Source: Kiloniellaceae bacterium
GTDB taxonomy: Bacteria; Pseudomonadota; Alphaproteobacteria; Kiloniellales; J153
Direction: 5' to 3'
DNA: 64,000 nucleotides
NCBI GenBank assembly: GCA_021776095.1
Contig: JAJFGO010000098.1
Coordinates: 23,094-87,093 of the forward strand
The notes beneath the pieces are model-generated. The model worked only from the letters and a program-made list of their open reading frames with translations. It did not search any database and was not told where the DNA came from. This document shows positions 14,680 to 58,171 of the stretch, in pieces (the stretch's first letter is position 1; every line of letters starts with the position of its first letter). The translations under genes were made by a program, and so were the position numbers.

Positions 14680-15448
14680 CCGAAACCCCTTTCCACAAGA
14701 GCGACAATCCCATGATCAGGAGCAGCGCCCTGAGTGCGACATGCAGGGTGACCTCCCCGATGTTGCGCTTGACGACGACGCCCAAGCCGATCCCCAGCGC
14801 CAGGGCCGGGACCAGGGCGGCGACCGCGCTCCAACCGCCCGTGGTCTTTTCGCCAAACCCGAAATGAATCAGAAACGCCGCGCTATAGGAGAAGACGAAG
14901 AGGGCGCGCAGGGTCGCGCGCACCAGGGCGGGCGCGACATTCTGGTGCAACAGGGCCCAGAGGGCGACCGGACCGGGGATCGCCAGGCAGCCGCTTAGGA
15001 AACCGGATACTCCGCCGCCCACCAAGGTGCGCCGTCGCGCCGCCGCACCGCTGTCGGCGACTGCCGCCCGCCGGTCCAGCAGCAGCAACTGTACGGCCGC
15101 CGCCAGCACCACCGCGCCGGCAAAGAGTTTCAGGGTAGTCGCATCGAACTGCTGCAGCACAAGCCAGCCCAATGGCACGCCGACCACGGTACCGATCAGG
15201 AGTAACCGCAGGGGCGGCCACGAGATTTCGCCCCTTTCCTGCGGCAAGAGCGCGAGGGACACCAAGAGGTTTAGGATGATGGCGACGAACACCGCCGTCT
15301 GGCTGTGCAGGGTGAGAATCAAGGCCGGTCCCGCCAGCAAACCGAGACCGGCCCCGGTCGCCACTTGCAGGGTGGTGCCGGCGCAGACCACCAACGAGAC
15401 CAAGACCAGCGCGTTCAGGCTCAAGGGCAGGTTATCAAAAAGGGCCAC
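14666..15448 (-). CDS. TauE/SafE (DUF81) family sulfite/anion exporter
   Basis: 260-aa polytopic membrane protein with the Gly/Ala/Leu-rich 4+4 TM repeat typical of the family. GTG start. Confidence 0.82.
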   Translation of the reverse strand: MALFDNLPLSLNALVLVSLVVCAGTTLQVATGAGLGLLAGPALILTLHSQTAVFVAIILNLLVSLALLPQERGEISWPPLRLLLIGTVVGVPLGWLVLQQFDATTLKLFAGAVVLAAAVQLLLLDRRAAVADSGAAARRRTLVGGGVSGFLSGCLAIPGPVALWALLHQNVAPALVRATLRALFVFSYSAAFLIHFGFGEKTTGGWSAVAALVPALALGIGLGVVVKRNIGEVTLHVALRALLLIMGLSLLWKGVSDVTA

Positions 15449-15516
15449 GCCCCGTACCTCCGGACCGAAGAGGGGCGACGATACCGCAAAGAATCACTCA
15501 TCGAAATGACGGCCTT

Positions 15517-16479
15517 TCAGGGTTTGGCGTTCACGAAACCATGACCGGAGCCGCCATAGGTCAGGCTCAGGTATTCGTAAAACACCCGGGCAGGGGCTGA
15601 GAGGTTGGAGTCCCGGCGCCAGCCGAGGCCCACGTCCATGCTCGGCACCTCGTCGCTGACCGGACGGACCTCGATCCGCTGACCTTCCAGAGACCACGGC
15701 CGATACACCATGTCCGACAGAATGGACACGCCCATGCCGGTGGCGACCATGCTGCGCACCGCCTCGACCGAGGAGGTTTCGAAGATCACTTTCGGGAGGT
15801 GCGGCGTCTTCCGCCAATACCGCATGGCTGTGTCGTCGGCCTCGTCGACCGTCAGCATGACGTAGGGTTCCGCGGCGATCTCGGCCAGCGACACGGTTTC
15901 CCGTGCCACGAGATGGTGATCGGCGCAGGCCCAGAGCCGGCGGCGCGAACGCACCAGGATTTCGGAATCGATTGACAGGCTATTCTGCAGGTTGGACACC
16001 AGCATGACCGCGATATCCAAATTGCCGTTCATGAGGCCCGACTCGATATCCTCGCGCGCCAGTTCTTGCATATGGACCGTGATGCCGGGGAAGGCCCGCG
16101 TGAAGCGGGCCAAGATTTGCGGTAGGAAATAGGCCGCCACGGTGTAGGTCAGGCCGACCCGGACCTCGCCGGTTTCGGCCGAACCGGTGCGGCGCAAGGC
16201 CCGCGTAGCCTCCGATACCGTCGCTTCTATGCTGCGGGCGTGCTGAAGAAATTGATGTCCTTCATAGGTTAAGGTAACGCCGCTGGGATGGCGCTCGAAC
16301 AGGCGAGCCTCAAGCTCGTCTTCCAAGGCCTTGATCGCGGCGGTCACGGCCGACTGCGAAACGTTGAGGTCCGCCGCCGCCGAGGAAATCTTCGCAGCAT
16401 CCGCGACCGCGATGAAATAACGCACTTGGCGAAATGAAAATGCCATCAATTTTTCCGATATCGTGTTTCTGTTTTTCAT
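15517..16479 (-). CDS. LysR-family transcriptional regulator
   Basis: N-terminal HTH FRQVRYFIAVADAAKISSAAADLNVSQSAVTAAIKALE followed by a LysR substrate-binding domain. The true start is probably the internal ATG at 16446 (MAFSFRQVRYF). Confidence 0.9.
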   Translation of the reverse strand: MKNRNTISEKLMAFSFRQVRYFIAVADAAKISSAAADLNVSQSAVTAAIKALEDELEARLFERHPSGVTLTYEGHQFLQHARSIEATVSEATRALRRTGSAETGEVRVGLTYTVAAYFLPQILARFTRAFPGITVHMQELAREDIESGLMNGNLDIAVMLVSNLQNSLSIDSEILVRSRRRLWACADHHLVARETVSLAEIAAEPYVMLTVDEADDTAMRYWRKTPHLPKVIFETSSVEAVRSMVATGMGVSILSDMVYRPWSLEGQRIEVRPVSDEVPSMDVGLGWRRDSNLSAPARVFYEYLSLTYGGSGHGFVNAKP

Positions 16480-16641
16480 ATTTTACAATAGTCTCAGCGT
16501 TCGTAAAGTGACGATACGGAGCGGAGTACAGCGTCGGAAATGCGCCACAAGGCGCCCCGACCATTGCTGGCGGGGGCCCTCACGATCTTTGGGCCTCCCC
16601 GGCGGCAAGCCGCGAAGAACACTTAACAGGGAGAACTAGCA

Positions 16642-17730
16642 ATGAAATTTCGCTGGACTGGGCCGCTTGCCGCGGCCGGTGGCGCGCTTGCCTTGGCGGT
16701 TATCCTGCCGCTTTCGGCACAGGCCGAGGAAAAATGGTTTCCCTATCCGGTTGAGGTCTGGGACCCGCCCTTTGACATGGCCAGCCCGCGCAAGACGGTG
16801 GATTATTCGCCCGTCGCCAAGGCCTCCAAGGCCTGGGATATCTGCGTATCCTTTCCGCACATGAAAGATGCTTATTGGCTGGCTGTCGATTACGGCGTGG
16901 TGGCCGAGGCCGAGCGCCAGGGCGTCAAGATGCAGTTGGTCGAGGCCGGCGGCTACACCAACCTCAACACCCAGGTATCGCAGATTGAGGACTGTGTCGC
17001 GCGCGGCTCCGATGCGGTCATCATTGGGGCGATTTCCTTCGACGGCCTGAACAATCTGGTCAAGGAGGTCCGCTCCAAGGGCATTCCGGTGATCGACGTG
17101 ATCAACGGCATGTCGTCGCCGGAGCTTTCCGCCAAGTCGCTGGTTTCCTTCGGCGAGATGGGCTTCAAGGCCGGCGAGCACATCGCCAAGCTGCATCCAA
17201 AGGGTTCGGGCGCGGTCAAGGTCGCCTGGTTCCCGGGCCCTCCGGGCGCCGGTTGGGTTGAGGCCGGCAACAAGGGCTTCCAAGAGGCTGTGGCCGGTTC
17301 GGATATTCAGGTCGTCGAGACCAAATACGGCGACACGGGCAAGGAAGTGCAGCTGAAGCTGGTTGAGGACACCTTGGAAGCCCACCCGGACATTCAATAC
17401 GTGGTCGGCACCGCGGTGACCGCCGAGGCGGCCACCGGTCTGCTGCGCGCGCGTGGCCTGACCGACAAGATCAAGATCATGTCGTACTACTTCACGCCGG
17501 GTGTGTTTCAGGGCATCAAGCGGGGCCAGATACTCGCCGCGCCCACCGATTCCGCTGTGGTTCAAGGCCGGGTCGCGATCGATCAGGCGGTCCGCATCCT
17601 GGAAGGCAAACCCTACGAGAAGCACGTCGGACCGGCCCTCTACGTGATCGATTCGAAGAACATCGATACCTTCGACCGGGGCTCTTCCTTGGCGCCGGAC
17701 GGATTCAAGCCGACCTTCACCGTGAACTGA
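16642..17730 (+). CDS. Periplasmic sugar-type (PBP1, TorT/ribose-binding-like) ABC substrate-binding protein
   Basis: 362 aa. Signal peptide ending LSAQA-EE and GGGAGAA ahead of the ATG. Alternating beta-alpha pattern (ICVSFPHMKDAYW, VIIGAISFDG, IPVIDVINGM) typical of type I sugar binders. Confidence 0.85.
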   Translation: MKFRWTGPLAAAGGALALAVILPLSAQAEEKWFPYPVEVWDPPFDMASPRKTVDYSPVAKASKAWDICVSFPHMKDAYWLAVDYGVVAEAERQGVKMQLVEAGGYTNLNTQVSQIEDCVARGSDAVIIGAISFDGLNNLVKEVRSKGIPVIDVINGMSSPELSAKSLVSFGEMGFKAGEHIAKLHPKGSGAVKVAWFPGPPGAGWVEAGNKGFQEAVAGSDIQVVETKYGDTGKEVQLKLVEDTLEAHPDIQYVVGTAVTAEAATGLLRARGLTDKIKIMSYYFTPGVFQGIKRGQILAAPTDSAVVQGRVAIDQAVRILEGKPYEKHVGPALYVIDSKNIDTFDRGSSLAPDGFKPTFTVN

Positions 17731-17750
17731 GGCCGCGGGCCTCTGCTCGA

Positions 17751-19289
17751 ATGAACGGCGAGGTTATGAATGGCGGGGGTCCGGTGGACGGATCCCCGCC
17801 ACTTCTCAAGCTTGAAAATATCACCAAGCGCTATCCGGGCGTCTTGGCGCTGGACCGGGTCGAATTCGACCTGCGGGCCGGGGAGGTGCACGTCCTCTTC
17901 GGCGAGAACGGCGCCGGCAAGTCGACTCTGATATCGATCCTGGCCGGCGCCCAGACTCCCGATGGTGGGCGGATCCAGTTCCGTGGCCAAACCATCGATA
18001 TGAACTCGGTGCATCATGCCCGCTCGCTAGGCATCAGCGCGGTGTTTCAGGAATTTTCCCTGGTGCCCCAGCTGACCATCGAGCAAAACCTTTTCCTGGG
18101 GGCCGAGGAAACGACCCTGGGAATGCTCAACAAAACCGCCCTGCACGACCGGGCCAAGGAGATCTTGGAACGGCTTGGCTTCGACCTGCGGCCGACTCAA
18201 AAGGTCGCGTTTCTGTCCCGCGCCCAGCAACAGATGGTCGAGATCGCCAAGGCGTTTCGTTCCGACCTCTCGATATTGATTCTCGACGAACCGACGGCCT
18301 CCCTGACCGACCGGGAGACCGAGCAGCTTTTCGCCCTGATCAATCAGGTCAAGGCCCGCGGCGTCGGCATCATCTATATCACCCATCGCATGAGCGAGAT
18401 CCGGCGCATTGCCGACCGGATCACGGTGCTGCGCGACGGGCGCTATGTCGCCACCGTCGACGCAAGCACGTCGGAAGGCGAGTTGGTCCGCCTCATGACC
18501 GGCCGCGTGATCGACGAACTGTTCCCCAAGGTCCGGTTCGAACCCGGTGAAACGATGCTTGAAATCGAGCATCTCGCGACCGCCGACGGAACCGTGAGCG
18601 ACGTCAGCATGACCCTGCGCCGGGGCGAGGTCGTTGGCCTCGCGGGCCTGGTGGGCTCCGGCAAGTCGGAGGTGGCGCGGGCCTGTTTCGGCCTTATTCC
18701 GGTTGCCGCCGGGCGGGTCGTGTTCGCGGGCGCGGACACCACCGGACTGTCGCCAAGCCAAATGCTCGACCGCGGATTCTTCTATGTGCCGCCCGACCGG
18801 CGCGACGAGGGGTTGATGATGATGCGCGGCGTGCGTGAAAATATCGTCCTCTCGGCCCTGTCCGAGCCGGAGTTTTCGCGCGGGCCGTTTTTGCGCCGCA
18901 AGGCGGAGGCGGCCAAGGCCCAGGAACTGGCGCAGCGCCTGAACCTGCAACCGCTCAGAATCGAACGCGAGGTCGATCATTTCTCCGGCGGCAACCAACA
19001 AAAAGTGATGCTGGCCAAGAGCCTGACTCGCGAGGTCGATCTCTTTGTCTTCGACGAGCCGACCGTGGGCGTCGATGTCGGCACCCGGGTGGCGATCTAT
19101 GAGTTCATCCGCGATCTGTGCGAGAATGGTGCGGCGGTATTGCTGATCTCCTCAGATCTGCCGGAGATCCTGCACCTGACCAAGCGGGTCTACGTGATGT
19201 GCCGCGGCGTTCTGACTGCGGAGGTGACCGGCGAGGAGATAAACCAGGAGAACATCCTGCGGCATTGCTTCGAGCGAGAGGCGGCATGA
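17751..19289 (+). CDS. Sugar ABC transporter ATP-binding protein (tandem ABC domains)
   Basis: 512 aa. Walker A GENGAGKST, signatures LSRAQQQMVEIA and FSGGNQQKVMLA, Walker B ILILDEPT and LFVFDEPT. Confidence 0.92.
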   Translation: MNGEVMNGGGPVDGSPPLLKLENITKRYPGVLALDRVEFDLRAGEVHVLFGENGAGKSTLISILAGAQTPDGGRIQFRGQTIDMNSVHHARSLGISAVFQEFSLVPQLTIEQNLFLGAEETTLGMLNKTALHDRAKEILERLGFDLRPTQKVAFLSRAQQQMVEIAKAFRSDLSILILDEPTASLTDRETEQLFALINQVKARGVGIIYITHRMSEIRRIADRITVLRDGRYVATVDASTSEGELVRLMTGRVIDELFPKVRFEPGETMLEIEHLATADGTVSDVSMTLRRGEVVGLAGLVGSGKSEVARACFGLIPVAAGRVVFAGADTTGLSPSQMLDRGFFYVPPDRRDEGLMMMRGVRENIVLSALSEPEFSRGPFLRRKAEAAKAQELAQRLNLQPLRIEREVDHFSGGNQQKVMLAKSLTREVDLFVFDEPTVGVDVGTRVAIYEFIRDLCENGAAVLLISSDLPEILHLTKRVYVMCRGVLTAEVTGEEINQENILRHCFEREAA

Positions 19290-20332
19290 TGGCGGACCAG
19301 GAGCCCAAGGAAACCGGCGCCCAGCCACCGGCCAGGACGCGCTCGCTGACTTATTGGGTGCAGCTCGGCTTTGTCCGACTTGGCGTCTTGCCGTTCCTGC
19401 TGCTGATCGCCCTGGTGGTCTTCACCTTGCTGTCCGATCATTTCCTGACCGGCCGCAACCTGATGAATGTCGTGCGTCAGTCGGCTTATCTGACCTTGGT
19501 GTCCATGGGGCAGATGTTCGCCCTGCTGACTGGCGGCTTCGATCTTTCGGTTGGCACCATCCTGGCGCTGACCTCCGTGGTCGGCGCGACGGCCATGGCT
19601 GGAACCTATGCTGCCATGCCAGATTCCGCCGGTCTGGCGATCTTGATCGGCGTCCTGGCGGGCATCGCCGCCGGCACCGCGATTGGGGTGGTCAACGGGG
19701 TCGGCGTGTCCATCTTCAACGTCTCGCCCTTCATGATGAGCCTGGGCATGGCCTCTATCGGCTTCGGGATCGCCCTCTACATGACCGGCGGTACGCCGGT
19801 TTACGGCATGCCGGTGGAATTCGGCGACACCTTCGGGTTCGGTAACACCCTGGGATTGCCGACGCCGGTGCTGGTGACCCTGGTTCTGATCGCGGCGCTG
19901 TTCTTCGTGGTCAATTGGACCCGGCTGGGCCGCTACTTCTATGCGGTGGGCGGGAACATCAAGGCGGCGCGGCTTTCGGGCATCAATACCAAGCTCACAC
20001 TATTTCTGGCCTACGTGTTTTGCGGGCTCATGGCGTCGATTTCGGGAATTCTGTTGACCGCCCGGCTCGATACCGGGGAGGCCAACATCGGAGCGACCAT
20101 GCCGCTCGAATCCATCGCCGCTTGCGTTATCGCGGGCGTCAGCCTGCGCGGCGGCGTCGGCCGGTTGGAGAACGTGGTTCTCGGCGCCCTGTTCATTGGC
20201 TTGGTGCAAAACGGCATGAACCTGGCGCGTATCGAGTCCTATCTGCAAACGGTCGTGATTGGGTCACTTCTGATCCTGGCGGTGGTAGCGGATCAATTCC
20301 GTCTGCGCTATGTCGCGAATCTTCAGGACTGA
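19286..20332 (+). CDS. Sugar ABC transporter permease (RbsC/AraH-like)
   Basis: Polytopic protein. The ATG at 19286 forms an ATGA overlap with the ATPase stop. The ORF-track start at 19118 lies inside the ATPase gene and is rejected. Confidence 0.9.
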   Translation: MMADQEPKETGAQPPARTRSLTYWVQLGFVRLGVLPFLLLIALVVFTLLSDHFLTGRNLMNVVRQSAYLTLVSMGQMFALLTGGFDLSVGTILALTSVVGATAMAGTYAAMPDSAGLAILIGVLAGIAAGTAIGVVNGVGVSIFNVSPFMMSLGMASIGFGIALYMTGGTPVYGMPVEFGDTFGFGNTLGLPTPVLVTLVLIAALFFVVNWTRLGRYFYAVGGNIKAARLSGINTKLTLFLAYVFCGLMASISGILLTARLDTGEANIGATMPLESIAACVIAGVSLRGGVGRLENVVLGALFIGLVQNGMNLARIESYLQTVVIGSLLILAVVADQFRLRYVANLQD

Positions 20333-20336
20333 AGCC

Positions 20337-21332
20337 ATGCTGCGTGCCGCATCTATAGGATTGGGTTGGTGGTCGGACGAACTGGCCGGCGCGGTTCAAG
20401 GAAAGACTGACCTCCTGCGGATTGATTCGTGCTATTCCCGGTCGCAAGACAAACGAAACGCCTTCGCGGTGAAATTCGGAACCGGGCAGCACGAGACCTT
20501 TGAAGACCTCCTGGCGGACCCGGCGCTCGACGCGGTCATCCTGTCCACACCCCATTCCCTGCACGGCGAACACGTCACCCGCGCGGCCCAAGCGGGCAAG
20601 CATGTCTTCGTGGAGAAACCCTTCACCCTAACCGCCGAGAGCGGCCGGCGCGCTGCCATGGCCTGCACGGCCGCCGGGGTGGTCCTCGCGGTTGGGCAGA
20701 ACCGACGCTTCTCCGCCGTCGGGCAGATCCTCAAGACCATGCTGGAGGCCGGCGATTTCGGCACAGTCCTGCACCTGGAATCGAACTTTTCGGTGCCCAG
20801 CGCCCTAGCCTATACGGCGGATCGCTGGCGCGCGAACCGGATCGAGAGTCCGGCCGGCGGGCTCGCCGGCCTGGGGGTCCATATGATCGACCTCATGTGC
20901 TGGCTGGCCGGGCCGGTTGTCAGCGTCTCGGCACAGGCGAAGCGGCGCGCGGTGTCGGTCGATATGGACGACACCACCTCGGCACTGTTCGAGTTCGCTT
21001 CGGGCCCGACCGGGTACCTGGGCACGTCCATGGCCTGCCCCAACACTTCGTTCCTGAACCTCTACGGGACCAAGGCCAACGCCTTTGCCAGAGTCGACGC
21101 CAACGAACTTGAACTGGAGGTCGCGGGTGGCCAAGCGCCGGCGCGCGAGGTCGCGCCAGTCGATACCTTGAAGGCGGAGCTGGAGGAGTTCGCGGCGGCC
21201 TGCACGGGCGGCCCCGCATTCCGGGTGCGCCCGGAGGAAGCCATACACAACGTCGCGGTCATGGAGGCGATCACCGCTTCGGCGGCCACGGGTATGGCCC
21301 CGGTCGTGCTGGATGCGGCGGCAGGGAATTGA
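20337..21332 (+). CDS. Gfo/Idh/MocA-family NAD(P)-dependent oxidoreductase
   Basis: N-terminal Rossmann segment (MLRAASIGLGWWS...), DAVILSTPHSLH and GKHVFVEKPF motifs, and a C-terminal alpha/beta domain. Confidence 0.88.
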   Translation: MLRAASIGLGWWSDELAGAVQGKTDLLRIDSCYSRSQDKRNAFAVKFGTGQHETFEDLLADPALDAVILSTPHSLHGEHVTRAAQAGKHVFVEKPFTLTAESGRRAAMACTAAGVVLAVGQNRRFSAVGQILKTMLEAGDFGTVLHLESNFSVPSALAYTADRWRANRIESPAGGLAGLGVHMIDLMCWLAGPVVSVSAQAKRRAVSVDMDDTTSALFEFASGPTGYLGTSMACPNTSFLNLYGTKANAFARVDANELELEVAGGQAPAREVAPVDTLKAELEEFAAACTGGPAFRVRPEEAIHNVAVMEAITASAATGMAPVVLDAAAGN

Positions 21333-21362
21333 ACACGGCGGCACAAACTGGAGGACCGTAAG

Positions 21363-22097
21363 ATGGGGACTGCGATCAACTGCGATATGGGGGAAAGCTT
21401 CGGCCTCTATAAGATGGGCGAGGACGAGATGATGATGCCGCTCATCTCGGTCGCCAACGTGGCCTGCGGCTTTCACGGTTCAGACCCGAACCACATGCGC
21501 GCGACGGTGCAGCTTGCCAAGGCGCATGGCGTTCGGGTTGGCGCCCATCCTTCGCTGCCTGATCTGCAAGGCTTCGGCCGACGGGAAATGAAGGTCGGCC
21601 GGGACGAATTGGCTAATATCGTGATCTATCAGGTCGGCGCGTTGGTTGGCTTCCTGAAGGCCGAGGGGATGGAACTCAATCACATCAAGCCGCATGGCTC
21701 GCTATATGGCATGGCCGCGCGCGACGAGAAAATCGCCCACGCCATTTGCGATGCGGCCGATATCTACCGCGTGCCGCTGTTCGGCATGAAGAACACCCTG
21801 CACGAGAAAATCTACAAGGAACGAGGCCATGATTTCGTGGCCGAATTTTACGCCGATCTGCACTATCGCGACGATGGCGGCCTGATCATCACACGGGTGC
21901 ACGATCCGGTCGATCCGGTGGATGCCGCGGCGCGCTCCCTAAGGGCAATCGAGGAGGGCAAGACCGAATCGGTCGGCGGCGTCGATGTCGAGGTCGGCTC
22001 GGACTGCATTTGTGTGCACTCCGATACGCCTAATGCCATTGAGGTGGCGCGCGCCGTGCGCGAGGCGGTAAAGCCATACTTGGAAAAGGCTGCCTAG
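21363..22097 (+). CDS. LamB/YcsF family protein (5-oxoprolinase subunit A, PxpA-like)
   Basis: 244 aa. N-terminal INCDMGESFG and ACGFHGSDP motifs characteristic of LamB/YcsF. Confidence 0.9.
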   Translation: MGTAINCDMGESFGLYKMGEDEMMMPLISVANVACGFHGSDPNHMRATVQLAKAHGVRVGAHPSLPDLQGFGRREMKVGRDELANIVIYQVGALVGFLKAEGMELNHIKPHGSLYGMAARDEKIAHAICDAADIYRVPLFGMKNTLHEKIYKERGHDFVAEFYADLHYRDDGGLIITRVHDPVDPVDAAARSLRAIEEGKTESVGGVDVEVGSDCICVHSDTPNAIEVARAVREAVKPYLEKAA

Positions 22098-22143
22098 GGC
22101 GCGGGCACACTGCAACACCACACAGACGAAGAAGGGGAAATCC

Positions 22144-22386
22144 ATGGCGAGTAAACAGGTTCTATCGCCCTTGCCGGGTGTTTTTTACCGCAAGCCGGCG
22201 CCGGACCAGCCGGTGTACAAGGAAAAGGGCGATACCGTGGCTGTCGGGGATGTGGTCGGGTTGGTCGAGGTGATGAAGTCATTCCATGAGGTGAAGGCCG
22301 ATAGCGCCGGCACGATCTCGAAATTCCTGGTCGAGAACGAGGATGCCATCATGGCCGGTCAGCCCTTGCTCGAACTGGACGGCTGA
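22144..22386 (+). CDS. Small biotin carboxyl carrier protein (biotinyl domain only)
   Basis: 80 aa with a biotinyl/lipoyl hammerhead pattern. LVEVMKSFHEV is a variant of the (A/V)MKM biotinylation motif, with Lys45. Confidence 0.85.
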   Translation: MASKQVLSPLPGVFYRKPAPDQPVYKEKGDTVAVGDVVGLVEVMKSFHEVKADSAGTISKFLVENEDAIMAGQPLLELDG

Positions 22387-22406
22387 ACCGGGTCCGGGAC
22401 GGGGTC

Positions 22407-23795
22407 ATGGCCATTCAACGCTTGCTCATCGCCAATCGGGGCGAAATCGCGGTGCGCATTATCCGTGCGGCGCGCGAATTGGGCTTGCATAGCATTCAAG
22501 TTCACAGCCAGGCCGATCGCGACTCCCTGGCGGTTCGCCTGGCGGACGAAGCTATCGATATCGGTCCGCCCCAGGCTGCCAAGTCCTATTTGAAGATCGA
22601 AGCGATTCTAGACGCCGCCCAACGGACGAGGGCGGATGCGGTCCATCCGGGATACGGTTTCCTGGCCGAGAACGCCGATTTCGCCGATGCGGTGGAGGCG
22701 GCGGGGCTAGCTTTCGTCGGACCCACGGGCGCGACGATCCGGCTTTTGGGCGACAAGGTTTCGGCCCGCGAGGCGGCGGCCAAGGCCGGTCTGAAGACCG
22801 TGCCCGGCAGCCAGGGCCGCATCGAACCCGGTGAGGCGGCGGGCGCTCTGGCGGAGGAGATCGGCTTTCCCCTTCTGATCAAGGCCGCGGCCGGCGGCGG
22901 CGGGCGGGGCATACGGATTGCTCACGACCTGGCGGAGTTCGAGCGCTTTGTGCCTCAGGCCAGCGCCGAGGCGCGGGCGGCATTTGGCGACGGGGGCTTG
23001 TATATCGAGAAGCTGATCGCGCGCGCGCGCCATATCGAGGTTCAGGTCCTGGGCGATGGGGAGCGTGTGGTGCATTGTTTTGAGCGCGAATGTTCCCTGC
23101 AACGGCGGCGACAGAAGGTTTGGGAGGAGGCTCCCGCGGCAACCTTATCGGATACCACGCGGCAGTCCCTGTGCGAGTCCGCGGTTGCCCTGGCCAAATC
23201 CGTCAACTACCGGGGCGCCGGCACGCTGGAGTTTCTCTATGACGAAGCAACCGGAAAGTCTTATTTTCTGGAGATGAATACCCGCATTCAGGTCGAGCAC
23301 CCGGTGACCGAAATGATCACCGGCATCGATTTGGTGCGTGAGATGATTCGGATCGCGGACGGCGAGCCGCTTCGCCTACGTCAGGAAGATATCCGGGTGC
23401 GCGGCCATGCTATCGAGTGCCGGATCAATGCGGAGGATCCATTGAACGGCTTCGCGCCGGATCCGGGCCAGGTCGAGGCCTTGAACATGCCGGGGGGACC
23501 GGGCGTGCGCTTCGATACGCTGCTTTATCCGGGTTACGCCATTCCGCCCTTTTACGATTCGCTTCTGGGCAAACTGATTGTGCACGACCAGGATCGCGCC
23601 AGCGCGCTAAGCCGATTGAGAAGGGCCTTACGGGAATTTAGGATCGAAGGCGTGAAGACCACGGCGCCCTTACACCGGGCGCTGGCCGAGGACGCGGCCG
23701 TCAGGGCGGGCGAAGTTCATACGAGTTTTCTGGAGCAATGGCTTGAGCGCGAAGCGCCGCGTTTAGCGCAATACGGGGAGGTGGACCACCCATGA
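22407..23795 (+). CDS. Biotin carboxylase (AccC-type ATP-grasp)
   Basis: 462 aa. Motifs LIANRGEIAVRI, HPGYGFLAEN, KAAAGGGGRGIR and EMNTRIQVEHPVTE. Confidence 0.93.
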   Translation: MAIQRLLIANRGEIAVRIIRAARELGLHSIQVHSQADRDSLAVRLADEAIDIGPPQAAKSYLKIEAILDAAQRTRADAVHPGYGFLAENADFADAVEAAGLAFVGPTGATIRLLGDKVSAREAAAKAGLKTVPGSQGRIEPGEAAGALAEEIGFPLLIKAAAGGGGRGIRIAHDLAEFERFVPQASAEARAAFGDGGLYIEKLIARARHIEVQVLGDGERVVHCFERECSLQRRRQKVWEEAPAATLSDTTRQSLCESAVALAKSVNYRGAGTLEFLYDEATGKSYFLEMNTRIQVEHPVTEMITGIDLVREMIRIADGEPLRLRQEDIRVRGHAIECRINAEDPLNGFAPDPGQVEALNMPGGPGVRFDTLLYPGYAIPPFYDSLLGKLIVHDQDRASALSRLRRALREFRIEGVKTTAPLHRALAEDAAVRAGEVHTSFLEQWLEREAPRLAQYGEVDHP

Positions 23796-24667
23796 AGACG
23801 AGATACTCCTTTGGCGGCGACGAGCATATTTTCGTCGAAGTCGACGAAGAAATGTCGCTGGACGCCTTTTTCAAGAGCCTGTCCATAACCAACGCGGTGC
23901 GGGAGAGCCAGATCAAGGGCGTGACCGAAATCTGCCCCGCGAACGCCTCGTACCAGATCAAGTACGACCCCGACGTCATCGCGCCCGACGATCTGTTGGC
24001 GGAACTGAAAAGCCTGGAAGCCGCCGCCGAAAAGTCGGAATCGATCATCGATACGCGGATTATCGAGGTTCCGGTTTTCTACAACGACCCTTGGACCCAC
24101 GAAACCCTGATGCGGTTTCGCGAGCGTCACCAGGATCCGGATAGTACCGATCTCGAATACGCCGCGCGGATTAACAAATTCACGTCGGTCGATGAGTTCA
24201 TCGCGGCCCATTCCGGCGCGCCCTGGTTCGTGACCATGGTTGGTTTCGTTTCGGGCCTGCCGTTCATGTACCAAATGGCCGAACGCACCCACCAGATCGA
24301 GGTGCCGAAATACCTGCGCCCACGGACCGACACCCCCAAACTGACCGTTGGCTACGGCGGGTGTTTTGCGTGCATCTATTCCGTGCGCGGCGCGGGGGGC
24401 TATCAGATGTTCGGCATCACGCCCATGCCGATCTTCGATCCCAAGCAGGAGATTAGTTACCTGCGCGACTTCATGGTGTTTTTCCGGCCGGGTGACATCG
24501 TCAAGTTTAAGCCGATCGACCGGCCCGCCTACGATGCGGCCGTTGCCGATGTGGAGGCGGACAAGTTCGCTCCGCGGATCCGGGAATTCACGTTCTCCTT
24601 GAAAGAGCACCATAGCGATATCGACGGCTACAACAAAAAGATCGGGGAGGTTCTCCATGGGAATTAG
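23792..24667 (+). CDS. KipI/PxpB-like protein (carboxyltransferase subdomains C-D; formerly allophanate hydrolase subunit 1)
   Basis: 291 aa. ATGA overlap with the biotin carboxylase stop. Family pattern ...EIPVFYNDPW...GFVSGLPFMY...PRTDTPKLTVGYGG... Read by eye only. Confidence 0.85.
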   Translation: MKTRYSFGGDEHIFVEVDEEMSLDAFFKSLSITNAVRESQIKGVTEICPANASYQIKYDPDVIAPDDLLAELKSLEAAAEKSESIIDTRIIEVPVFYNDPWTHETLMRFRERHQDPDSTDLEYAARINKFTSVDEFIAAHSGAPWFVTMVGFVSGLPFMYQMAERTHQIEVPKYLRPRTDTPKLTVGYGGCFACIYSVRGAGGYQMFGITPMPIFDPKQEISYLRDFMVFFRPGDIVKFKPIDRPAYDAAVADVEADKFAPRIREFTFSLKEHHSDIDGYNKKIGEVLHGN

Positions 24668-25631
24668 GGTTTTATCGCCGGGCTTAGCGACCTCCGTTCA
24701 AGACCTGGGCCGCCCGGGCTATTATCACCTGGGGATTCCGATCTCGGGTGGCATGGACCGTTTTTCGCTAAGAGCCGCCAATCTCCTGGTCGGTAACGAC
24801 GAGGGCGCCGCGGTTCTCGAGGCCGTGTTCTTGGGACCGGAACTGGAGTTCACCCAGGACGCCACGGTCGCGGTTACCGGGGCCGATCTGCCGCCCAAGT
24901 TGGACGGCGAACCGCGCGAAACCTGGGCGGCCTTCGCGGTCAAGGCAGGGCAGGTGCTCAGCTTCGATTTCCTCAAGTCCGGCGCGCGAGCCTATATCGC
25001 CATATCGGGCGGGATCGATACGCCGCCAGCGCTCGGCAGCCGCTCGACCTACACCTTGGGTGCGCTGGGTGGTCATGAGGGCCGCAACCTCATGGCCGGC
25101 GACGCCTTGCCGCTCGGTCAAGCTTCCGGCGGTGCCGCCGAGGGGCGTAGCGTGCCCGCGAAGCTGCGCCGCGCGCCCGGCACGCCGGCGGAACTGCGCG
25201 TGTTGACCGGGCTCTATTGGCATCGGATCACAGAGGACTCGGGGCGCAACTTTTTCGAGGATACATGGAAGGTCGCGCCGGAGGCGGACCGCATCGGCTA
25301 TCGTTTTCGCGGCGGTCAACCCCTGTCGTTCGTCGACCGGGTGCCGCCCTTCGGGGCCGGCTCGGACCCCTCGAACATTGTCGATAGCTGCTATCCCTAT
25401 GGCTCGATTCAGGTGCCGGGGGGAACCGAACCGATCATCTTGCATCGCGATGCGGTGTCGGGCGGGGGCTATTTCATGCTCGGCACTGTGATCGCGGCGG
25501 ATATGGATCTGATTGGCCAGTTGCAGCCCAACACGCCGACCAAGTTCGTTTCCGTCGATATGGCGGCGGCGTTGTCGGCCCGGCACGATCGTGCCGGTTT
25601 GATGCAAGAGGTACGAAACGCGCTGAGTTGA
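24657..25631 (+). CDS. KipA/PxpC-like protein (carboxyltransferase subdomains A-B; formerly allophanate hydrolase subunit 2)
   Basis: 324 aa. N-terminal VLSPGLATSVQDLGRPGYYHLGIPISGGMD is typical of the family. Overlaps the upstream gene by 11 nt. Confidence 0.87.
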   Translation: MGIRVLSPGLATSVQDLGRPGYYHLGIPISGGMDRFSLRAANLLVGNDEGAAVLEAVFLGPELEFTQDATVAVTGADLPPKLDGEPRETWAAFAVKAGQVLSFDFLKSGARAYIAISGGIDTPPALGSRSTYTLGALGGHEGRNLMAGDALPLGQASGGAAEGRSVPAKLRRAPGTPAELRVLTGLYWHRITEDSGRNFFEDTWKVAPEADRIGYRFRGGQPLSFVDRVPPFGAGSDPSNIVDSCYPYGSIQVPGGTEPIILHRDAVSGGGYFMLGTVIAADMDLIGQLQPNTPTKFVSVDMAAALSARHDRAGLMQEVRNALS

Positions 25632-25919
25632 GCCCGTCTTTGTCGGGTACGGATCGCGAGCTAGGCTTATCCAGAAGCTCCGGCCAATTATCGGCCGTGT
25701 GACACCCGCTATGCGGGTATCGACGCCGGCGCCTTAGGCCCGGCGGGTTGAACTCGGGCGCGAGAGAACACGCTCAGATAGTTAATAAGGTATTGTTAAT
25801 TCATATACTTTAGATTTGAGGGAAGACTAATACGTCTCACGCGGAGTTAGGGCACGGTCAATTGCGGAGCACTGCCAGGCCCAACCGCTGAGAGAGAAAA
25901 TGCGTTCCGCCTCCAAATA

Positions 25920-28175
25920 ATGACCGGCTGCGACGTGGCATCAAGAGATCACTCGAAGGTCATAAAGGCCGGTAGCAGTCGAATCGCGGAGCGACGTGAT
26001 TCACCAGCCGTAGACCAGGGATCCACCAACCCGGCGGCCAGCCGGCCGGACGACCTTGGTTTGTCGGCGCAGGAGATCGAGCGGCTGAAGAGCCGCTTTC
26101 TTGGTCCGGCGTCCGAGAGAACGCGGACAGACGATCCCTGGCTTCAAACGACCCCTCGGAACCTCGTCACACGGCTTCTCGAGGGTCAGACTGAACTTCT
26201 TAGGCTCAGCAACAAGGGGGGGGGCCGTGAGACACTCCTTGAGCACCTGGCTGACCTGGCGGCGCGCCTTCTGGGGCCAGCCGATTGTTTCATTGAAGTC
26301 ATCGATACCGGTGGCATTGCGCAGTGCCAAGCGATGGCACCGAATACCACTAGGGCCGCGACAGGCGGAACTGATAGTCGGGACAGAGGTCCAGGTGCGG
26401 ATGGATCCGTCGAGCTCGCCGGAGAGGACGGGATTCTCACGTGTTGGTCGCACGGCATTCTGTCATCGGAAGGCAGGCCCCAAGGCACCATAAGGGTCTA
26501 TCGTCGCAAGCCGGGGGAGCCGGAACCGGACGACCAGTGGGTCCTAGATGCCGTGGCCGAGATGGCGCAGTTCGTAATCCAATCCTCGTCGCGCGAGGCG
26601 GCGCTGAATTCGGCGCAGATGCGCTTCGCCTCATTGGCTGAATCTATACCAGGGGTCGTGTACCAACGACGGGTCACACCTGAGGGGGATATCTCTTACC
26701 CCTACATTAGCGAAAGTGCGCAGGACATGTTCGGCGTTACCGCCGAAGAGATCATGACCAATCCACAGGCGCTGTTCGATTGTTTTGGGCCAGAGTATCG
26801 GACAACTTTCCGCGAGCGCCTTCTTTCCGCTTCCCGAAACCTGGAAATGTGGGACGTCGAAGCTCAGATCATCACGGCGAATGGCGAAGAAAAATGGAAC
26901 CATGCCATTGCCCGGCCGCACATGGAAAGCGATGGTTCTGTCCTCTGGGACGGCGTCATCCTTGACGCAACGCGTATAAAACGAGCTGAGTTGGAGCTGC
27001 GCAAGACCAAAGAGGCCGCCGAGGCTGCCAACCGAGTTCAGGCCGAGCTGCTCGAAAAGTTGCGCAGCGCCAATACACGCTTTGCCTCTCTGGCGGCGTC
27101 CATACCCGGGGTCGTGTATCAGCGTCGTGTCACCCTCGAGGGGGATATCGGATATACCTACATCAGCGACGGCGCGCGGGACCTTTTCGGCGCGACGGCC
27201 GAGGAGATCATGGCGAATCCACAGGCGCTGTTCGATCGTCATGGACCGGAATATCGGGATGACTTCCGGGAGCGTCTTCTTACCGCATCTCGCAATCTGG
27301 AAATGTGGGATGTCGAGGCTCAGATCATCACGGCGAATGGCGAGGAGAAATGGACCCACGCGATTGCCCGGCCGCACTTGGAGAGCGACGGTTCTGTCCT
27401 CTGGGACGGGGTCATCCTCGATGCCACGCGCATCAAGCGGGCCGAGTTCGAATTACGCCAAGCCATGGACGCGGCCAACGCTGCGAACCGGGCCAAGTCG
27501 CTCTTCCTCGCCCAAGTCAGTCACGAACTTCGCACGCCCCTTAATGCCGTGATCGGCTTTGCAGGGATGCTCGTGCAGCAGTTTCTTGGCCCGCTGGGAA
27601 ACGACAAGTACGAGGAGTATGCGTGCGACATTGAGAAAAGCGGCCGGCAACTTCTAGATGTGATCAACAATATTCTAGAATTTACAAAAGTTGAGAGCGG
27701 TAGCGTCTCCGGCCAGAAAAGCGCCGTCGACCTGAGGGCGATTTCCGACAAAGCCATCGTTCATTCCGAGGCTATTTCGAAATCGAAAAACATAAGAGTG
27801 CACAACAATATCGGACCCGAAATCTGCCCGGTCATGGGGGACGAAGAAAAGCTTGAATATATTCTTCAAAACCTGGTCTCGAACGCTGTGAAGTTCACCA
27901 ACGATGGCGGCGAGGTACGCATAGAGGGTCGTCAAAATGGAGGTCGAACCGTCGTTATCGATGTTGTCGACACCGGTATCGGAATAGCGGCGGAGGACAT
28001 CCCGAAGGTTTTCGAGCCCTTTACTCAGATCGATTGCGAATTGAGCCGGAAGTACGAAGGGCTCGGTTTGGGGATGCCCTTGGCGGCCGCGATGGCCGAG
28101 ATGCATGGCGGTTCGATTAAGATCGACAGCGAACTCGGGCAGGGCACGAAGGTTAGTCTCTCGCTTCCGAAATAG
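25920..28175 (+). CDS. Cytoplasmic sensor histidine kinase: GAF-like N-domain, two near-identical PAS domains, HisKA, HATPase_c
   Basis: 751 aa with no TM helices. H-box [19 protein letters not shown] and G-boxes DTGIGI and GLGLGMPLA. PAS units start at aa 235 and aa 387. Confidence 0.9.
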   Translation: MTGCDVASRDHSKVIKAGSSRIAERRDSPAVDQGSTNPAASRPDDLGLSAQEIERLKSRFLGPASERTRTDDPWLQTTPRNLVTRLLEGQTELLRLSNKGGGRETLLEHLADLAARLLGPADCFIEVIDTGGIAQCQAMAPNTTRAATGGTDSRDRGPGADGSVELAGEDGILTCWSHGILSSEGRPQGTIRVYRRKPGEPEPDDQWVLDAVAEMAQFVIQSSSREAALNSAQMRFASLAESIPGVVYQRRVTPEGDISYPYISESAQDMFGVTAEEIMTNPQALFDCFGPEYRTTFRERLLSASRNLEMWDVEAQIITANGEEKWNHAIARPHMESDGSVLWDGVILDATRIKRAELELRKTKEAAEAANRVQAELLEKLRSANTRFASLAASIPGVVYQRRVTLEGDIGYTYISDGARDLFGATAEEIMANPQALFDRHGPEYRDDFRERLLTASRNLEMWDVEAQIITANGEEKWTHAIARPHLESDGSVLWDGVILDATRIKRAEFELRQAMDAANAANRAKSLFLAQVSHELRTPLNAVIGFAGMLVQQFLGPLGNDKYEEYACDIEKSGRQLLDVINNILEFTKVESGSVSGQKSAVDLRAISDKAIVHSEAISKSKNIRVHNNIGPEICPVMGDEEKLEYILQNLVSNAVKFTNDGGEVRIEGRQNGGRTVVIDVVDTGIGIAAEDIPKVFEPFTQIDCELSRKYEGLGLGMPLAAAMAEMHGGSIKIDSELGQGTKVSLSLPK
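26622..27490 (+). repeat. Intragenic tandem duplication (456-bp period) of a PAS module plus the start of the DHp helix
   Basis: Unit 1 begins RFASLAESIPGVVYQRRVTPEGDISY and unit 2 begins RFASLAASIPGVVYQRRVTLEGDIGY. Long identical stretches include RNLEMWDVEAQIITANGEEKW and ESDGSVLWDGVILDATRIKRAE. Both units end in ...AANR. Confidence 0.88.
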
Positions 28176-32434: not shown

Positions 32435-32833
32435 GACACCTCAACCAATGCGTAACGCTAGTCCGTCGGGACAGACCGGGCCGTTGCAACTCAAACAGTT
32501 TGTGCAATTTCCGGTTTAAAAAGCATTAATGATTAGTGGTAAGTAAAAAAGTTTAGAGACTTTTAAAAACTGTTAGTTAATTTACTTCTATAATAATAGT
32601 TGCTTACCGATTTTTAACCGCTGCCTTAGACAATCCCTTCACCATCATTCGGCTTCTACCAGCATGGAGTGTGTATCCGGATGCCTTCGCAAGCAGCTGA
32701 AACGAATGCCCCGGCGTCCCAGGCCGGCGTAGAGGGAGTTCCTGTTGGCCCGGACTGCCGTCCGCTCCGCCAAGCGCGCCGGACGGGGCGGCTGGAACAA
32801 CTCGAGTCCCAAGTTAGCCAGTTGCTGGAGCGA

Positions 32834-33928: not shown

Positions 33929-33945
33929 GTGCGGCACGCGGCGGA

Positions 33946-37578: not shown

Positions 37579-37872
37579 GGCACCTTAGGATAGCCATCGG
37601 GTCTCGATCTTCAAGAATCGGGTTCCGGAACTTTGAGCCGGCCCTTCGGGAAAATCCCGCGGGGCCGGTTCTCGTTGTGCTCAGATTTCATTTGACTGCA
37701 ACAAACCAGTAACGCTCCAATCCTCAGTTCGCGAAGGGACGATGTTTCCTGACCTGCCGGGTCCCGGCGGGCTTGTGAAATGCGTCTTGGCCCTGCTAAA
37801 TCAGGTTGGCTTTCCGGCGTCCCGAAGGGCGGCGCAGGACGCGTTGAAATGGGTGTGGGATTGGGAAACGAA

Positions 37873-39212: not shown

Positions 39213-39215
39213 GCT

Positions 39216-52752: not shown

Positions 52753-52756
52753 TGCC

Positions 52757-54518: not shown

Positions 54519-54521
54519 ACC

Positions 54522-55250: not shown

Positions 55251-55255
55251 GAGTT

Positions 55256-55963: not shown

Positions 55964-55973
55964 GGGCAGGCTC

Positions 55974-58165: not shown

Positions 58166-58171
58166 AATACC

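Follow-up and report, generated by a model that had tools for sequence, protein, structure and literature searches.

The biotin-dependent carboxylases that use a nitrogen atom as acceptor are, to our knowledge, known for two substrates alone, urea and guanidine. In K. lactis urea carboxylase/amidolyase (DUR1,2; PDB 3VA7, 5I8I) a biotin carboxylase (BC), the carboxyltransferase (CT) subdomains A+B and C+D and a biotin carboxyl carrier protein (BCCP) are modules of one polypeptide of about 1200 aa, and an allophanate hydrolase of the amidase-signature type completes the reaction. Guanidine carboxylase belongs to the same urea carboxylase (UC) family of N-carboxylases, is also a single polypeptide with its own dedicated downstream hydrolase, and typically has a guanidine-I riboswitch as its control element. 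It works with CgdAB and allophanate hydrolase rather than with a LamB-type protein.

The CT families are also found outside of biotin enzymes. The 5-oxoprolinase PxpABC (YbgJKL in E. coli, KipI/KipA/YcsF in B. subtilis) unites the families PF03746, PF02682 and PF02626, in canonical operons of the order B-C-A that have neither BC nor BCCP, and canonical PxpA is a metal-dependent hydrolase. Paralogues of PxpABC in P. putida hydrolyse butyrolactam (10.1101/2021.12.09.472016). In a cryo-EM structure the mycobacterial KipA/KipI homologues MSMEG_0435-0436 bind biotinyl-BCCP with the biotin placed for carboxyl transfer, and the authors read the pair as regulatory (10.1101/2025.10.28.685139). Another ATP-dependent lactam hydrolase is the caprolactamase CapAB/OplAB of the hydantoinase-oxoprolinase family, whose activity is bicarbonate-dependent (PMC8453981).

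Here we analyse a bacterial locus in which UC-type and Pxp-type parts stand together. It lies in a 64,000-nucleotide stretch from a Kiloniellaceae bacterium, hereafter the window, and is rather probably a LysR-controlled catabolic operon for a multi-subunit biotin-dependent amidolyase. We propose a 'lactam/amide amidolyase' that would depend on ATP and bicarbonate, as a counterpart to urea amidolyase. A full-text literature search found no paper that characterises the five-gene set.

A conserved five-gene unit

The initial annotation described five contiguous, partly overlapping genes. An ORF check places all five on the + strand, co-directional and with precisely the limits given, and the HMM searches that it had called for, with Pfam and NCBIfam, matched all five families with E-values way past chance (Table 1). 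The same holds for the 80-aa BCCP with its EVMKS biotinylation motif, on which ORF and Pfam match agree. The overlap is 4 nt between BC and KipI and 11 nt between KipI and KipA, while the remaining gaps within the set measure 20-46 nt.

Table 1 Features of the operon and its upstream region (positions within the window).
Feature	Position	Strand	Size, domain evidence and remarks
LysR-family regulator	15517..16479	-	PF00126 + PF03466; divergent from operon
Divergent intergenic (promoter) region between LysR gene and operon	16480..16641	.	sigma-70-like consensus matches only
TorT-like periplasmic solute-binding protein (CUT2/Peripla_BP_4)	16642..17730	+	NF008185 TorT, 421.8 bits vs cutoff 200
ABC transporter ATPase, CUT2 type	17751..19289	+	PF00005 x2
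ABC transporter permease (BPD_transp_2)	19286..20332	+	PF02653; start codon uncertain, ORF opens at 19118
Gfo/Idh/MocA oxidoreductase	20310..21332	+	PF01408 + PF22725 + PF02894
PxpA/LamB-YcsF-type hydrolase subunit	21363..22097	+	244 aa; PF03746, E 1e-87
Biotinyl domain (BCCP), stand-alone	22144..22386	+	80 aa; PF00364, E 2e-16
Biotin carboxylase (BC)	22407..23795	+	462 aa; PF00289 + PF02786 + PF02785
KipI-type carboxyltransferase subunit (UC subdomains C+D, long KipI type)	23792..24667	+	291 aa; PF02682 CT_C_D, E 2e-41
KipA-type carboxyltransferase subunit (UC subdomains A+B)	24657..25631	+	324 aa; PF02626 CT_A_B, E 8e-89

Hundreds of bacterial species share the five-gene set: a scan of species-representative genomes yielded at least 572 stretches that encode a relative. 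Among 82 related loci, which are close relatives with 73-85% identity, the order PxpA-BCCP-BC-KipI-KipA is intact in 76 of the 78 informative ones. Distant relatives were sampled one by one. Two of them hold all five parts in other orders (KipI-KipA-LamB-BCCP-BC and BCCP-BC-LamB-KipA-KipI), and a further one encodes an 826-aa BC::KipI fusion between LamB and KipA-BCCP; a second fragment of this fusion type was also seen. Exceptions are L075 and L085, which have no adjacent BC, and L092, which is devoid of BC, BCCP and LamB altogether. The initial annotation had pointed to similar sets in other proteobacteria. The example that it named, PA0492-PA0496 of P. aeruginosa, agrees by its listed descriptions with PMC5521831, where the genes appear as conserved hypothetical, biotin-requiring enzyme, acyl-CoA carboxylase subunit and hypothetical, and are treated as a single operon. 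Judged by sequence, the five genes are best read as a selected unit.

The operon unit is wider than the five genes and also includes the divergent LysR gene and the TorT-like ABC transporter upstream. Of the 82 related loci, 57 have a LysR homologue (46-66% identity) upstream of the cluster and divergent from it. In the window, the intergenic region contains back-to-back sigma-70-like sequences at 16482-16509 (+) and 16507-16480 (-), which are consensus matches only. The solute-binding protein (SBP) matches the unassigned CUT2 SBP 4YHS (E 1e-143) and TorT (3O1H, E 7e-61). Its orthologues with at least 60% identity adjoin the five genes in 32 of the 82 loci, and the transporter ATPase and permease co-occur with it in related loci. 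The Gfo/Idh/MocA oxidoreductase was considered as a core component and dropped; among the 82 loci it occurs only in L043 and is a lineage-specific insert. Neighbours were clustered after a crude ORF picking that gave antisense shadow ORFs in high-GC DNA, and clusters 5, 12-14, 16, 19, 22 and 27 were discarded after inspection.

A carboxyltransferase pair of the urea carboxylase type

Do the KipI and KipA subunits resemble PxpBC or the CT domains of a biotin enzyme? The pair is urea-carboxylase-like rather than PxpBC-like. The catalytic Lys173 of KipI lies in the motif VPKYLRPRT, corresponding to a (P/T)-K-Y motif shared with urea carboxylase, and aligns to the general base K1605 of the K. lactis enzyme (KlUC). 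The PKY motif with this Lys is kept in 26 of 29 subfamily representatives, whereas canonical KipI/PxpB proteins align with an Arg at the position. KipI/KipA and KlUC have in common two insertions and a C-terminal extension that E. coli PxpB/PxpC do not possess; canonical PxpB is without a 19-aa insertion and the C-terminal extension of the C/D part, of about 45 aa, and PxpC is without the AGxxPSN loop. The KipA loop PFGAGSDPSNIVD is found in KlUC, absent from E. coli PxpC and conserved among BC-associated homologues.

Profile searches give a similar picture. KipI matches positions 804-1087 of the urea_carbox model with 112.7 bits and fails the PxpB equivalog TIGR00370 (77.4 vs cutoff 145.55), and KipA passes TIGR00724 (260.4 vs cutoff 230) and fails the PxpC equivalog NF045499 (209 vs cutoff 500). 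The AF2 model of KipI (pLDDT 95.6) finds its best Foldseek matches in 5I8I and 3VA7, with TMq values of 0.82-0.83 over 297 columns, as opposed to TM values of 0.43-0.60 for PxpB-type structures. The catalytic Lys, the two insertions, the C-terminal extension and the model thus uphold the earlier suggestion of a UC-type carboxyltransferase. The domain inventory is, as the initial annotation had it, that of urea carboxylase, with BC, CT(A,B), CT(C,D) and BCCP modules placed on four separate proteins according to Pfam.

Could the locus then simply encode a split urea amidolyase, in which four proteins carboxylate urea and LamB serves as allophanate hydrolase? Urea carboxylase is the closest characterised carboxyltransferase, the catalytic Lys is conserved, and 'urea carboxylase' is the name that the 291-aa protein receives from JGI pipelines. 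We nonetheless consider this very unlikely. Identity to KlUC amounts to only about 24-27% in the C/D part and about 24-36% over the CT domains, and the separate parts (BC 516.5, KipA 237.8, KipI 112.7, BCCP 22.9) stay below the TIGR02712 (EC 6.3.4.6) equivalog cutoff of 1303.85. An amidase-signature allophanate hydrolase is not consistently linked: none was found in the window or among the conserved neighbours, and an amidase occurs in just 5 loci. The LysR regulator is of a substrate type and the context is one of lactamase genes, as discussed below. There is no urea transporter context either; with about 55 bits, the Liv-type SBPs near related loci stay far below the UrtA cutoff (493), and a urea uptake context was dropped on this account. 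An identity as guanidine carboxylase was also rejected, as a search of positions 15000-26500 against Rfam gave no match of any kind with E < 0.5, and so no guanidine riboswitch.

A dedicated biotin carboxylase and carrier

The BCCP motif reads LVEVMKSF, with Lys45 as the biotinyl residue by alignment. The protein passes NF005457 (123.6 vs cutoff 87) and aligns to residues 78-156 of E. coli AccB, placing K45 opposite K122, but it has no counterpart to the 77 N-terminal residues and fails the AccB model TIGR00531 (68.6 vs cutoff 115.2). Full-length AccB comprises about 156 aa including an N-terminal BC-interaction region; the carrier found here, with 80 aa, is a biotinyl domain alone. The BC passes NF009471 (769.8 vs cutoff 686) and falls just under the accC equivalog TIGR00514 (618.9 vs cutoff 626.5). 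It retains the GGGGRG loop together with K117, K159, H209, K237, E275, E289, N291, R293, E297 and R339, and with its catalytic residues intact looks active.

The BC is also 50% identical to E. coli AccC, and in Shinella and Roseateles PGAP labels both proteins as acetyl-CoA carboxylase subunits, which would merely sit inside a pxp operon. This can practically be discounted. AccA and AccD were absent from the annotated flanks of two plasmid loci and from the neighbour families that are conserved among the 82 related loci (the larger ORFs of the window are partly annotated), and the linkage to KipI/KipA holds in all three gene orders as well as in the fusion. A housekeeping AccBC was the case that the initial annotation had named against its own reading; the biotinyl domain standing alone, the separate NCBIfam family of the BC and the plasmid location of the five-gene cluster in Shinella speak against it. 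In fact, none of the pipeline names 'acetyl-CoA carboxylase', 'urea carboxylase', 'allophanate hydrolase subunit' and '5-oxoprolinase' suits the five-gene unit.

Biotin supply and lactam genes in the neighbourhood

The neighbourhood of related loci provides a link to the cofactor. A BioY biotin transporter gene follows KipA at a distance of 16-269 nt in 19 loci, and BioY also occurs beside a 53%-identical relative. Together with the dedicated BC and BCCP, this linkage argues for the use of biotin. It also bears on the idea that KipI and KipA are regulators that either keep biotinyl-BCCP sequestered, the role suggested for MSMEG_0435/0436, or inhibit a kinase in the manner of B. subtilis KipI. 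The mycobacterial homologues have been read as sequestering the biotin of BCCP, and histidine-kinase genes come after the operon in the window. Such a role appears extremely improbable to us, since a sequestering factor would have little need of a dedicated BC and BCCP, a BC::KipI fusion and BioY linkage, the subfamily as a whole conserves the catalytic Lys, and the histidine kinases are not kept as neighbours in related loci.

Other neighbours hint at the type of substrate. In about 23 related loci, equivalogs of the caprolactamase CapA/CapB adjoin the five genes; in 3 loci, the gene directly after KipA encodes a GABA aminotransferase. The genomic context thus points toward lactam catabolism. 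CapAB itself is absent from the window, belongs to an unrelated protein family and is biotin-free. The type of transporter differs between loci (CUT2/TorT-like, Liv-type and Opp-type), so that the context gives no single substrate answer.

The hydrolase subunit leaves room for a more conventional substrate. The PxpA-like protein is 34% identical to E. coli PxpA, and the invariant columns of a five-sequence alignment are retained in both (N6, D8, G10, E11, H38, H62, K109, H111, E161, D165, H219 and D221). It lies above the cutoff of the NCBIfam PxpA subfamily NF003814 (269.6 vs 226) and fails the PxpA equivalog models (241 vs 392). With all three Pxp-type families there, and 5-oxoproline being ubiquitous, the operon could encode a biotin-assisted 5-oxoprolinase that converts 5-oxoproline to glutamate, with BC and BCCP giving an ATP-coupled activation that PxpBC perform alone elsewhere. 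We regard this as unlikely. The KipI and KipA scores given above remain far from the PxpB and PxpC cutoffs, and the neighbours are omega-lactam genes (CapAB, GABA aminotransferase) and not glutamate genes. Moreover, P. aeruginosa has, besides PA0492-0496, a separate canonical LamB/KipI/KipA set by the pyroglutamate porin OpdO, which argues for a different substrate.

A proposed route for amide and lactam opening

What is observed comprises the individual parts, the conservation of the whole unit, its UC-type features and its tie to biotin supply. How might the parts work together? The multi-subunit biotin-dependent carboxylase proposed at the outset has good comparative support in the domain inventory, the CT pair, the selected five-gene unit, the BioY linkage and a BC/BCCP pair distinct from housekeeping AccBC, and the enzyme probably opens a small lactam or amide using ATP and bicarbonate. 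As with PxpABC, the reaction would most likely be an ATP-requiring lactam opening here, too. It counts against this explanation that canonical PxpABC is reported to be ATP-requiring and biotin-free, so that a set of LamB, KipI and KipA can work without BC. The relatives without an adjacent BC (L075, L085) or without BC, BCCP and LamB (L092) and the differing transporter types weigh in the same direction.

We infer the following order of steps. The TorT-like SBP-dependent ABC transporter would import a small neutral amide or lactam. With ATP and bicarbonate, BC would carboxylate the biotin attached to Lys45 of the 80-aa carrier. The KipA/KipI heterodimer, as a UC-type carboxyltransferase with Lys173 as general base, would then pass the carboxyl group on to the nitrogen of the amide or lactam. 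The amide bond, N-carboxylated and thereby activated like an imide, would then be cut by the PxpA/LamB-type hydrolase, and the resulting carbamate would lose CO2 spontaneously. In the net reaction, amide, ATP and H2O would give acid/amine, ADP and Pi, with bicarbonate acting catalytically. This logic, an activation driven by ATP and bicarbonate followed by a dedicated hydrolase, would be that of urea amidolyase (urea carboxylase plus allophanate hydrolase), the LamB protein taking the place of allophanate hydrolase and presumably hydrolysing the carboxylated intermediate.

Placing the carboxyl group on nitrogen rather than carbon follows urea and guanidine carboxylases, by analogy only. No sequence feature dictates which atom is the acceptor, and hydantoinase/acetone-carboxylase-family genes are common among the neighbours of related loci. 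A carboxylation of the carbon next to a carbonyl, as in 2-oxoglutarate, pyruvate and acetone carboxylases, with LamB processing the C-carboxylated product, nevertheless seems highly unlikely, as the neighbouring HyuAB genes are caprolactamase equivalogs and not acetone carboxylases. Both characterised enzymes of this CT fold that we know of, the urea and guanidine carboxylases, carboxylate nitrogen.

Returning to carboxylation on nitrogen, we tentatively favour a small lactam as substrate, for example 2-pyrrolidinone, which would yield GABA. The five proteins could even constitute a third class of N-carboxylating biotin enzyme, a 'lactam amidolyase' that N-carboxylates a lactam such as 2-pyrrolidinone and has its ring opened by LamB/PxpA; we put this forward as a serious but tentative possibility. 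If true, such a third type, split, widespread and paired with a hydrolase of its own, would be a new ATP/bicarbonate-driven route to break stable amide and lactam bonds. This would matter for the way in which soil and marine Alphaproteobacteria scavenge nitrogen, for biocatalysis and for the biosensing of industrial lactams.

The gene set also makes testable a question that arose when MSMEG_0435-0436 was seen bound to BCCP by cryo-EM in 2025, namely the use of biotin by KipI/KipA-type proteins. Biotin carboxyl transfer might be an ancestral or hidden chemistry of the entire KipI/KipA (PxpBC) family, which would explain why the mycobacterial pair docks on the BCCP of an acyl-CoA carboxylase. 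In contrast to the operon described here with its dedicated BC and BCCP, that pair borrows its BCCP from AccA3, and the mycobacterial KipI homologue carries an Arg at the general-base position.

Gene content and family assignment

The five contiguous, partly overlapping genes of the initial annotation were all recovered as plus-strand open reading frames running from 21363 to 25631, as proposed. A domain search against Pfam matched LamB, the biotin carboxyl carrier protein (BCCP), biotin carboxylase (BC), PF02682 and PF02626 far beyond chance, and the EVMKS biotinylation motif reported for the 80-aa carrier is present. Overlaps amount to 4 nt between BC and KipI and 11 nt between KipI and KipA. 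The unit is larger than first described, as transporter genes and an oxidoreductase lie upstream in the same orientation, closely spaced or overlapping, and a LysR regulator is divergent.

Features of the gene set, its surroundings and a related fusion (window positions unless a locus is named)
Feature	Position	Strand	Length	Match or context
LysR regulator	15517-16479	-		divergent
TorT-like solute-binding protein	16642-17730	+		upstream of five genes
ABC ATPase, two-domain	17751-19289	+		upstream of five genes
Permease	about 19286-20332	+		upstream of five genes
Gfo/Idh/MocA oxidoreductase	20310-21332	+		between permease and PxpA-like gene; 23-nt overlap with permease
PxpA/LamB-type	21363-22097	+	244 aa	Pfam LamB_YcsF, E 1e-87
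BCCP carrier	22144-22386	+	80 aa	Pfam Biotin_lipoyl, E 2e-16; EVMKS
Biotin carboxylase	22407-23795	+	462 aa	three biotin-carboxylase domains (Pfam)
KipI-like	23792-24667	+	291 aa	Pfam CT_C_D (PF02682), E 2e-41
KipA-like	24657-25631	+	324 aa	Pfam CT_A_B (PF02626), E about 9e-89
Asp/Glu/hydantoin racemase	55256-55963			in 51883-60732 cluster
Polysaccharide-deacetylase/PuuE-like protein	55974-56891			in 51883-60732 cluster
Two M20 amidohydrolases	56831-59479			in 51883-60732 cluster
BC::KipI (CT C/D part) natural fusion	L090, 7001-9481		826 aa	LamB upstream; KipA and 72-aa BCCP downstream

NCBIfam models place the five proteins more finely. The LamB-type protein passes the PxpA subfamily model (269.6 versus 226) and none of the PxpA equivalogs; it is 34% identical to E. 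coli PxpA and keeps all columns invariant in a five-sequence alignment that includes it (N6, D8, G10, E11, H38, H62, K109, H111, E161, D165, H219, D221). The 291-aa protein stays below the PxpB cutoff (77.4 versus 145) and scores higher with the urea-carboxylase model, at 112.7 bits over model positions 804-1087. The sole model passed by the 324-aa protein is the generic '5-oxoprolinase/urea amidolyase family' domain; with PxpC it scores 209, where 500 is required.

The BC passes NF009471 (769.8 versus 686) and narrowly misses the housekeeping accC equivalog (618.9 versus 626.5). Aligned with E. coli AccC it is 50% identical and retains the glycine-rich loop and every catalytic residue checked. 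The carrier scores above the cutoff of NF005457, which models an 80-aa protein, and corresponds to the C-terminal biotinyl domain of AccB only; its Lys45 lies opposite AccB Lys122, and AccB's 77 N-terminal residues are absent. The initial annotation had named one identity at odds with its own reading, namely that BC and BCCP are the cell's only AccBC. Given the truncated carrier, a BC that falls in a separate family model, the lack of AccA or AccD among the conserved neighbours of related loci, and the plasmid location of the cluster in Shinella, we consider a housekeeping acetyl-CoA carboxylase very unlikely.

A predicted carboxyltransferase pair resembling urea carboxylase

We aligned the KipI/KipA pair with the carboxyltransferase domain of Kluyveromyces lactis urea carboxylase (UC) and with E. 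coli PxpB and PxpC. A 19-residue insertion after the PVxYxD strand and a C-terminal extension of about 45 residues are common to the KipI-like protein and UC and are missing from PxpB. The same holds for Lys173 in VPKYLRPRT, which aligns with the lysine of GTKYNPSRT in UC. That residue is K1605 of the amidolyase, where it is likely the essential general base of the carboxyltransferase reaction (PMC5770610). An arginine takes this position in the canonical proteins E. coli PxpB, B. subtilis KipI, P. horikoshii PH0987 and M. smegmatis MSMEG_0436. In the KipA-like protein, the loop PFGAGSDPSNIVD resembles the UC loop GGEAGLHPSNAHD, is not found in PxpC, and is nearly invariant in BC-associated homologues.

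These features extend beyond a single protein. A search of 1.84 billion representatives delineated a 'long KipI' as a distinct subfamily of about 280-300 aa, with 131 clusters at E < 1e-30. Of 29 full-length representatives, 26 have the P-K-Y motif and all have the C-terminal extension. AlphaFold predicts the 291-aa protein with confidence (pLDDT 95.6), and the top Foldseek matches of the model in the PDB are K. lactis urea amidolyase and urea carboxylase (E 4e-24, TMq 0.82-0.83, 297 columns), whereas the PxpB-type structures YbgJ, MSMEG_0436, TTHA0988 and PH0987 reach a TMq of just 0.43-0.60. Judged by alignment, and for the KipI-like protein also by predicted structure, the carboxyltransferase pair resembles urea carboxylase and not PxpBC.

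Two known systems were considered and set aside. For a guanidine carboxylase, no riboswitch was detected upstream. For a plain urea system, the Liv-type binding proteins close to some of the loci reach about 55 bits, where UrtA requires 493; allophanate hydrolase is not among the conserved neighbours of related loci.

The five genes as an evolutionary unit

Scanning a single genome for each species gave at least 599 matching stretches, at least 572 of them encoding a relative. The best 80 of these loci were kept (73-85% identity, mostly Alphaproteobacteria, including Dongia, Kiloniellales, Bradyrhizobium, Shinella, Ciceribacter, Hoeflea, Stappia and Pelagibius), and with two plasmid loci added, 82 were surveyed by tblastn with the window proteins. 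The co-directional order PxpA-BCCP-BC-KipI-KipA occurs in 76 of the 82. Four of the exceptions are cut by a contig end, one is without detectable PxpA, and in one (L075) BC is absent and KipI directly follows BCCP.

More distant members of the subfamily provide independent evidence. They show the same components rearranged, as KipI-KipA-LamB-BCCP-BC at 44% identity and as ABC-BCCP-BC-LamB-KipA-KipI at 33%. At 37% identity (L090), LamB is followed by a natural BC::KipI fusion and then by KipA and BCCP, and a CUT2 ABC transporter precedes them all; a second representative of this fusion type exists. Furthermore, in 19 loci KipA is followed, at a distance of 16-269 nt, by the start of a gene for the biotin transporter BioY, and a BioY gene is divergent beside a 53%-identical relative. 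Because the linkage survives three gene orders and is joined by a Rosetta-stone fusion and co-localised biotin uptake, there is a strong case for BC and BCCP working with the KipI/KipA carboxyltransferase, and for LamB being part of this enzyme system.

Of the 82 loci, 32 have orthologues of the solute-binding protein (at least 60% identity) and their ABC partners beside the five genes (upstream in 22, downstream in 10), and a LysR homologue is found in 57 of the related loci. The closest solved relative of the binding protein is 4YHS, an unassigned CUT2 protein (E 1e-143; TorT itself, E 7e-61). The oxidoreductase recurs among the 82 loci in L043 only, at 62% identity, and we therefore regard it as a lineage-specific addition.

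Variants of the set occur as well. BCCP-KipI-KipA is kept with no adjacent BC gene in L075 (7976-10813), where PxpA is still present, and in L085 (6540-8846); these variants presumably borrow a BC encoded elsewhere. Two PxpA types occur among the related loci. One, in Shinella, Ciceribacter, Rhizobium and Agrobacterium-like loci (L001, L002, L040, L041, L047, L049, L054, L059, L061, L067, L069, L073, L074, L081), is just 42-45% identical to the window's, with KipI and KipA at 72-77%, and many of these loci have the TorT-like ABC transporter on the downstream side, not upstream. It seems that the hydrolase subunit diverged or was replaced on its own, separately from the carboxyltransferase.

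Proposed mechanism and relation to known systems

The analysis establishes what the gene set is composed of, how it is conserved, its UC-type features and its connection with biotin. In the mechanism that we infer, acceptor atom, order of steps and substrate included, BC would load a carboxyl group on the Lys45 biotin of the carrier with ATP and bicarbonate. After transfer by the KipA/KipI pair, with Lys173 as general base, to an amide or lactam nitrogen, the LamB/PxpA hydrolase would split the activated N-acyl-carbamate, and the carbamate would decarboxylate. The net reaction would be an ATP-dependent amide hydrolysis with bicarbonate acting catalytically, which is the logic of urea amidolyase. 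In a mycobacterial KipA/KipI pair in complex with BCCP, biotin is placed to take part in carboxylation (10.1101/2025.10.28.685139).

While it would work like urea amidolyase, the system falls outside the urea carboxylase equivalog, being split, of low identity, and found with another hydrolase partner and context. It shares Pxp-type families with PxpABC, but scores below the PxpB and PxpC equivalog cutoffs and differs at the catalytic position. We place it among the N-carboxylating biotin enzymes, as a probable member that is split and coupled to LamB.

Earlier notice was taken of the gene set as PA0492-0496, and its annotation is piecemeal and inconsistent. In a recent genome paper an 'extra ACC' is listed apart from 'pxpB/pxpC' (PMC12427679). 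Where the cluster is plasmid-borne, in Shinella and a 'Roseateles' record, PGAP names its products '5-oxoprolinase subunit PxpA', 'acetyl-CoA carboxylase', 'carboxyltransferase domain-containing protein' and 'biotin-dependent carboxyltransferase family protein'. In the full-text literature covered by the search we found no paper that treats the five genes as a unit or gives a substrate; subscription papers beyond it may contain an earlier mention.

Substrate clues from genomic context

In about 23 loci the set is adjoined by CapB/CapA caprolactamase genes (NCBIfam equivalogs, 1112.7 and 1241.9 versus a cutoff of 1000) with their own divergent AraC/FeaR-type regulator. This parallels the AraC-type oplR beside oplBA in P. 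putida. P. putida has separate lactam hydrolases for different ring sizes, its butyrolactam hydrolase being the PxpABC paralogue PP_2920-2 (10.1101/2021.12.09.472016). Caprolactamase itself is bicarbonate-dependent (PMC8453981) and therefore a precedent for carboxyl-based lactam activation. P. aeruginosa has a LamB/KipI/KipA set beside the pyroglutamate porin OpdO, separate from PA0492-0496 (PMC6327441), which speaks against the BC-containing set being just the 5-oxoprolinase.

In three loci the gene next after KipA is a 4-aminobutyrate aminotransferase equivalog, and three further loci have one within 6 kb. Elsewhere the set is accompanied by Liv-type or Opp-type transporters, Mo-hydroxylases or amidases, and the neighbours point to no one substrate. 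The window has a Mo hydroxylase of the xanthine-dehydrogenase/CO-dehydrogenase type at 37780-41480 (FAD-binding subunit 37780-38736, Mo subunit 39216-41480), and similar genes adjoin the set in eight related loci; enzymes of this type convert N-heterocycles into lactam-type products. In L092 (6001-11983), a distant long-KipI relative of 36% identity stands in an operon KipI-KipA-HyuA-HyuB that follows a sigma-54 activator and a TRAP/TAXI-type transporter; BC, BCCP and LamB are all missing within 6 kb. This is a hint that UC-type carboxyltransferase proteins are linked in function to hydantoinase/carboxylase-family ATPases.

Other features of the window

Just downstream of the operon, a sensor histidine kinase (25920-28175) contains a tandem PAS-module duplication at 26622-27377 with a period of 456 nt (152 aa) and at least 300 nt at 80% identity, which suggests a fairly recent internal domain duplication. 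About 26 kb downstream, a separate cluster (51883-60732) with Liv-type ABC permeases and ATPases and a class-V aminotransferase looks like a hydantoin or ureide utilisation set; nothing that we found connects it with the five genes. An 826-aa open reading frame (33880-36360) overlaps the end of an ATP-grasp (D-Ala-D-Ala-ligase-like) gene (32669-33928) and matches MFS_1 only at C-terminal residues 422-753, with no Pfam match over its roughly 420 N-terminal residues. At 5882-10124, a FixG-like 4Fe-4S protein (5882-7402) and a heavy-metal P-type ATPase (7881-10124) form an ordinary context resembling a fixGHIS-type cbb3-oxidase maturation cluster.
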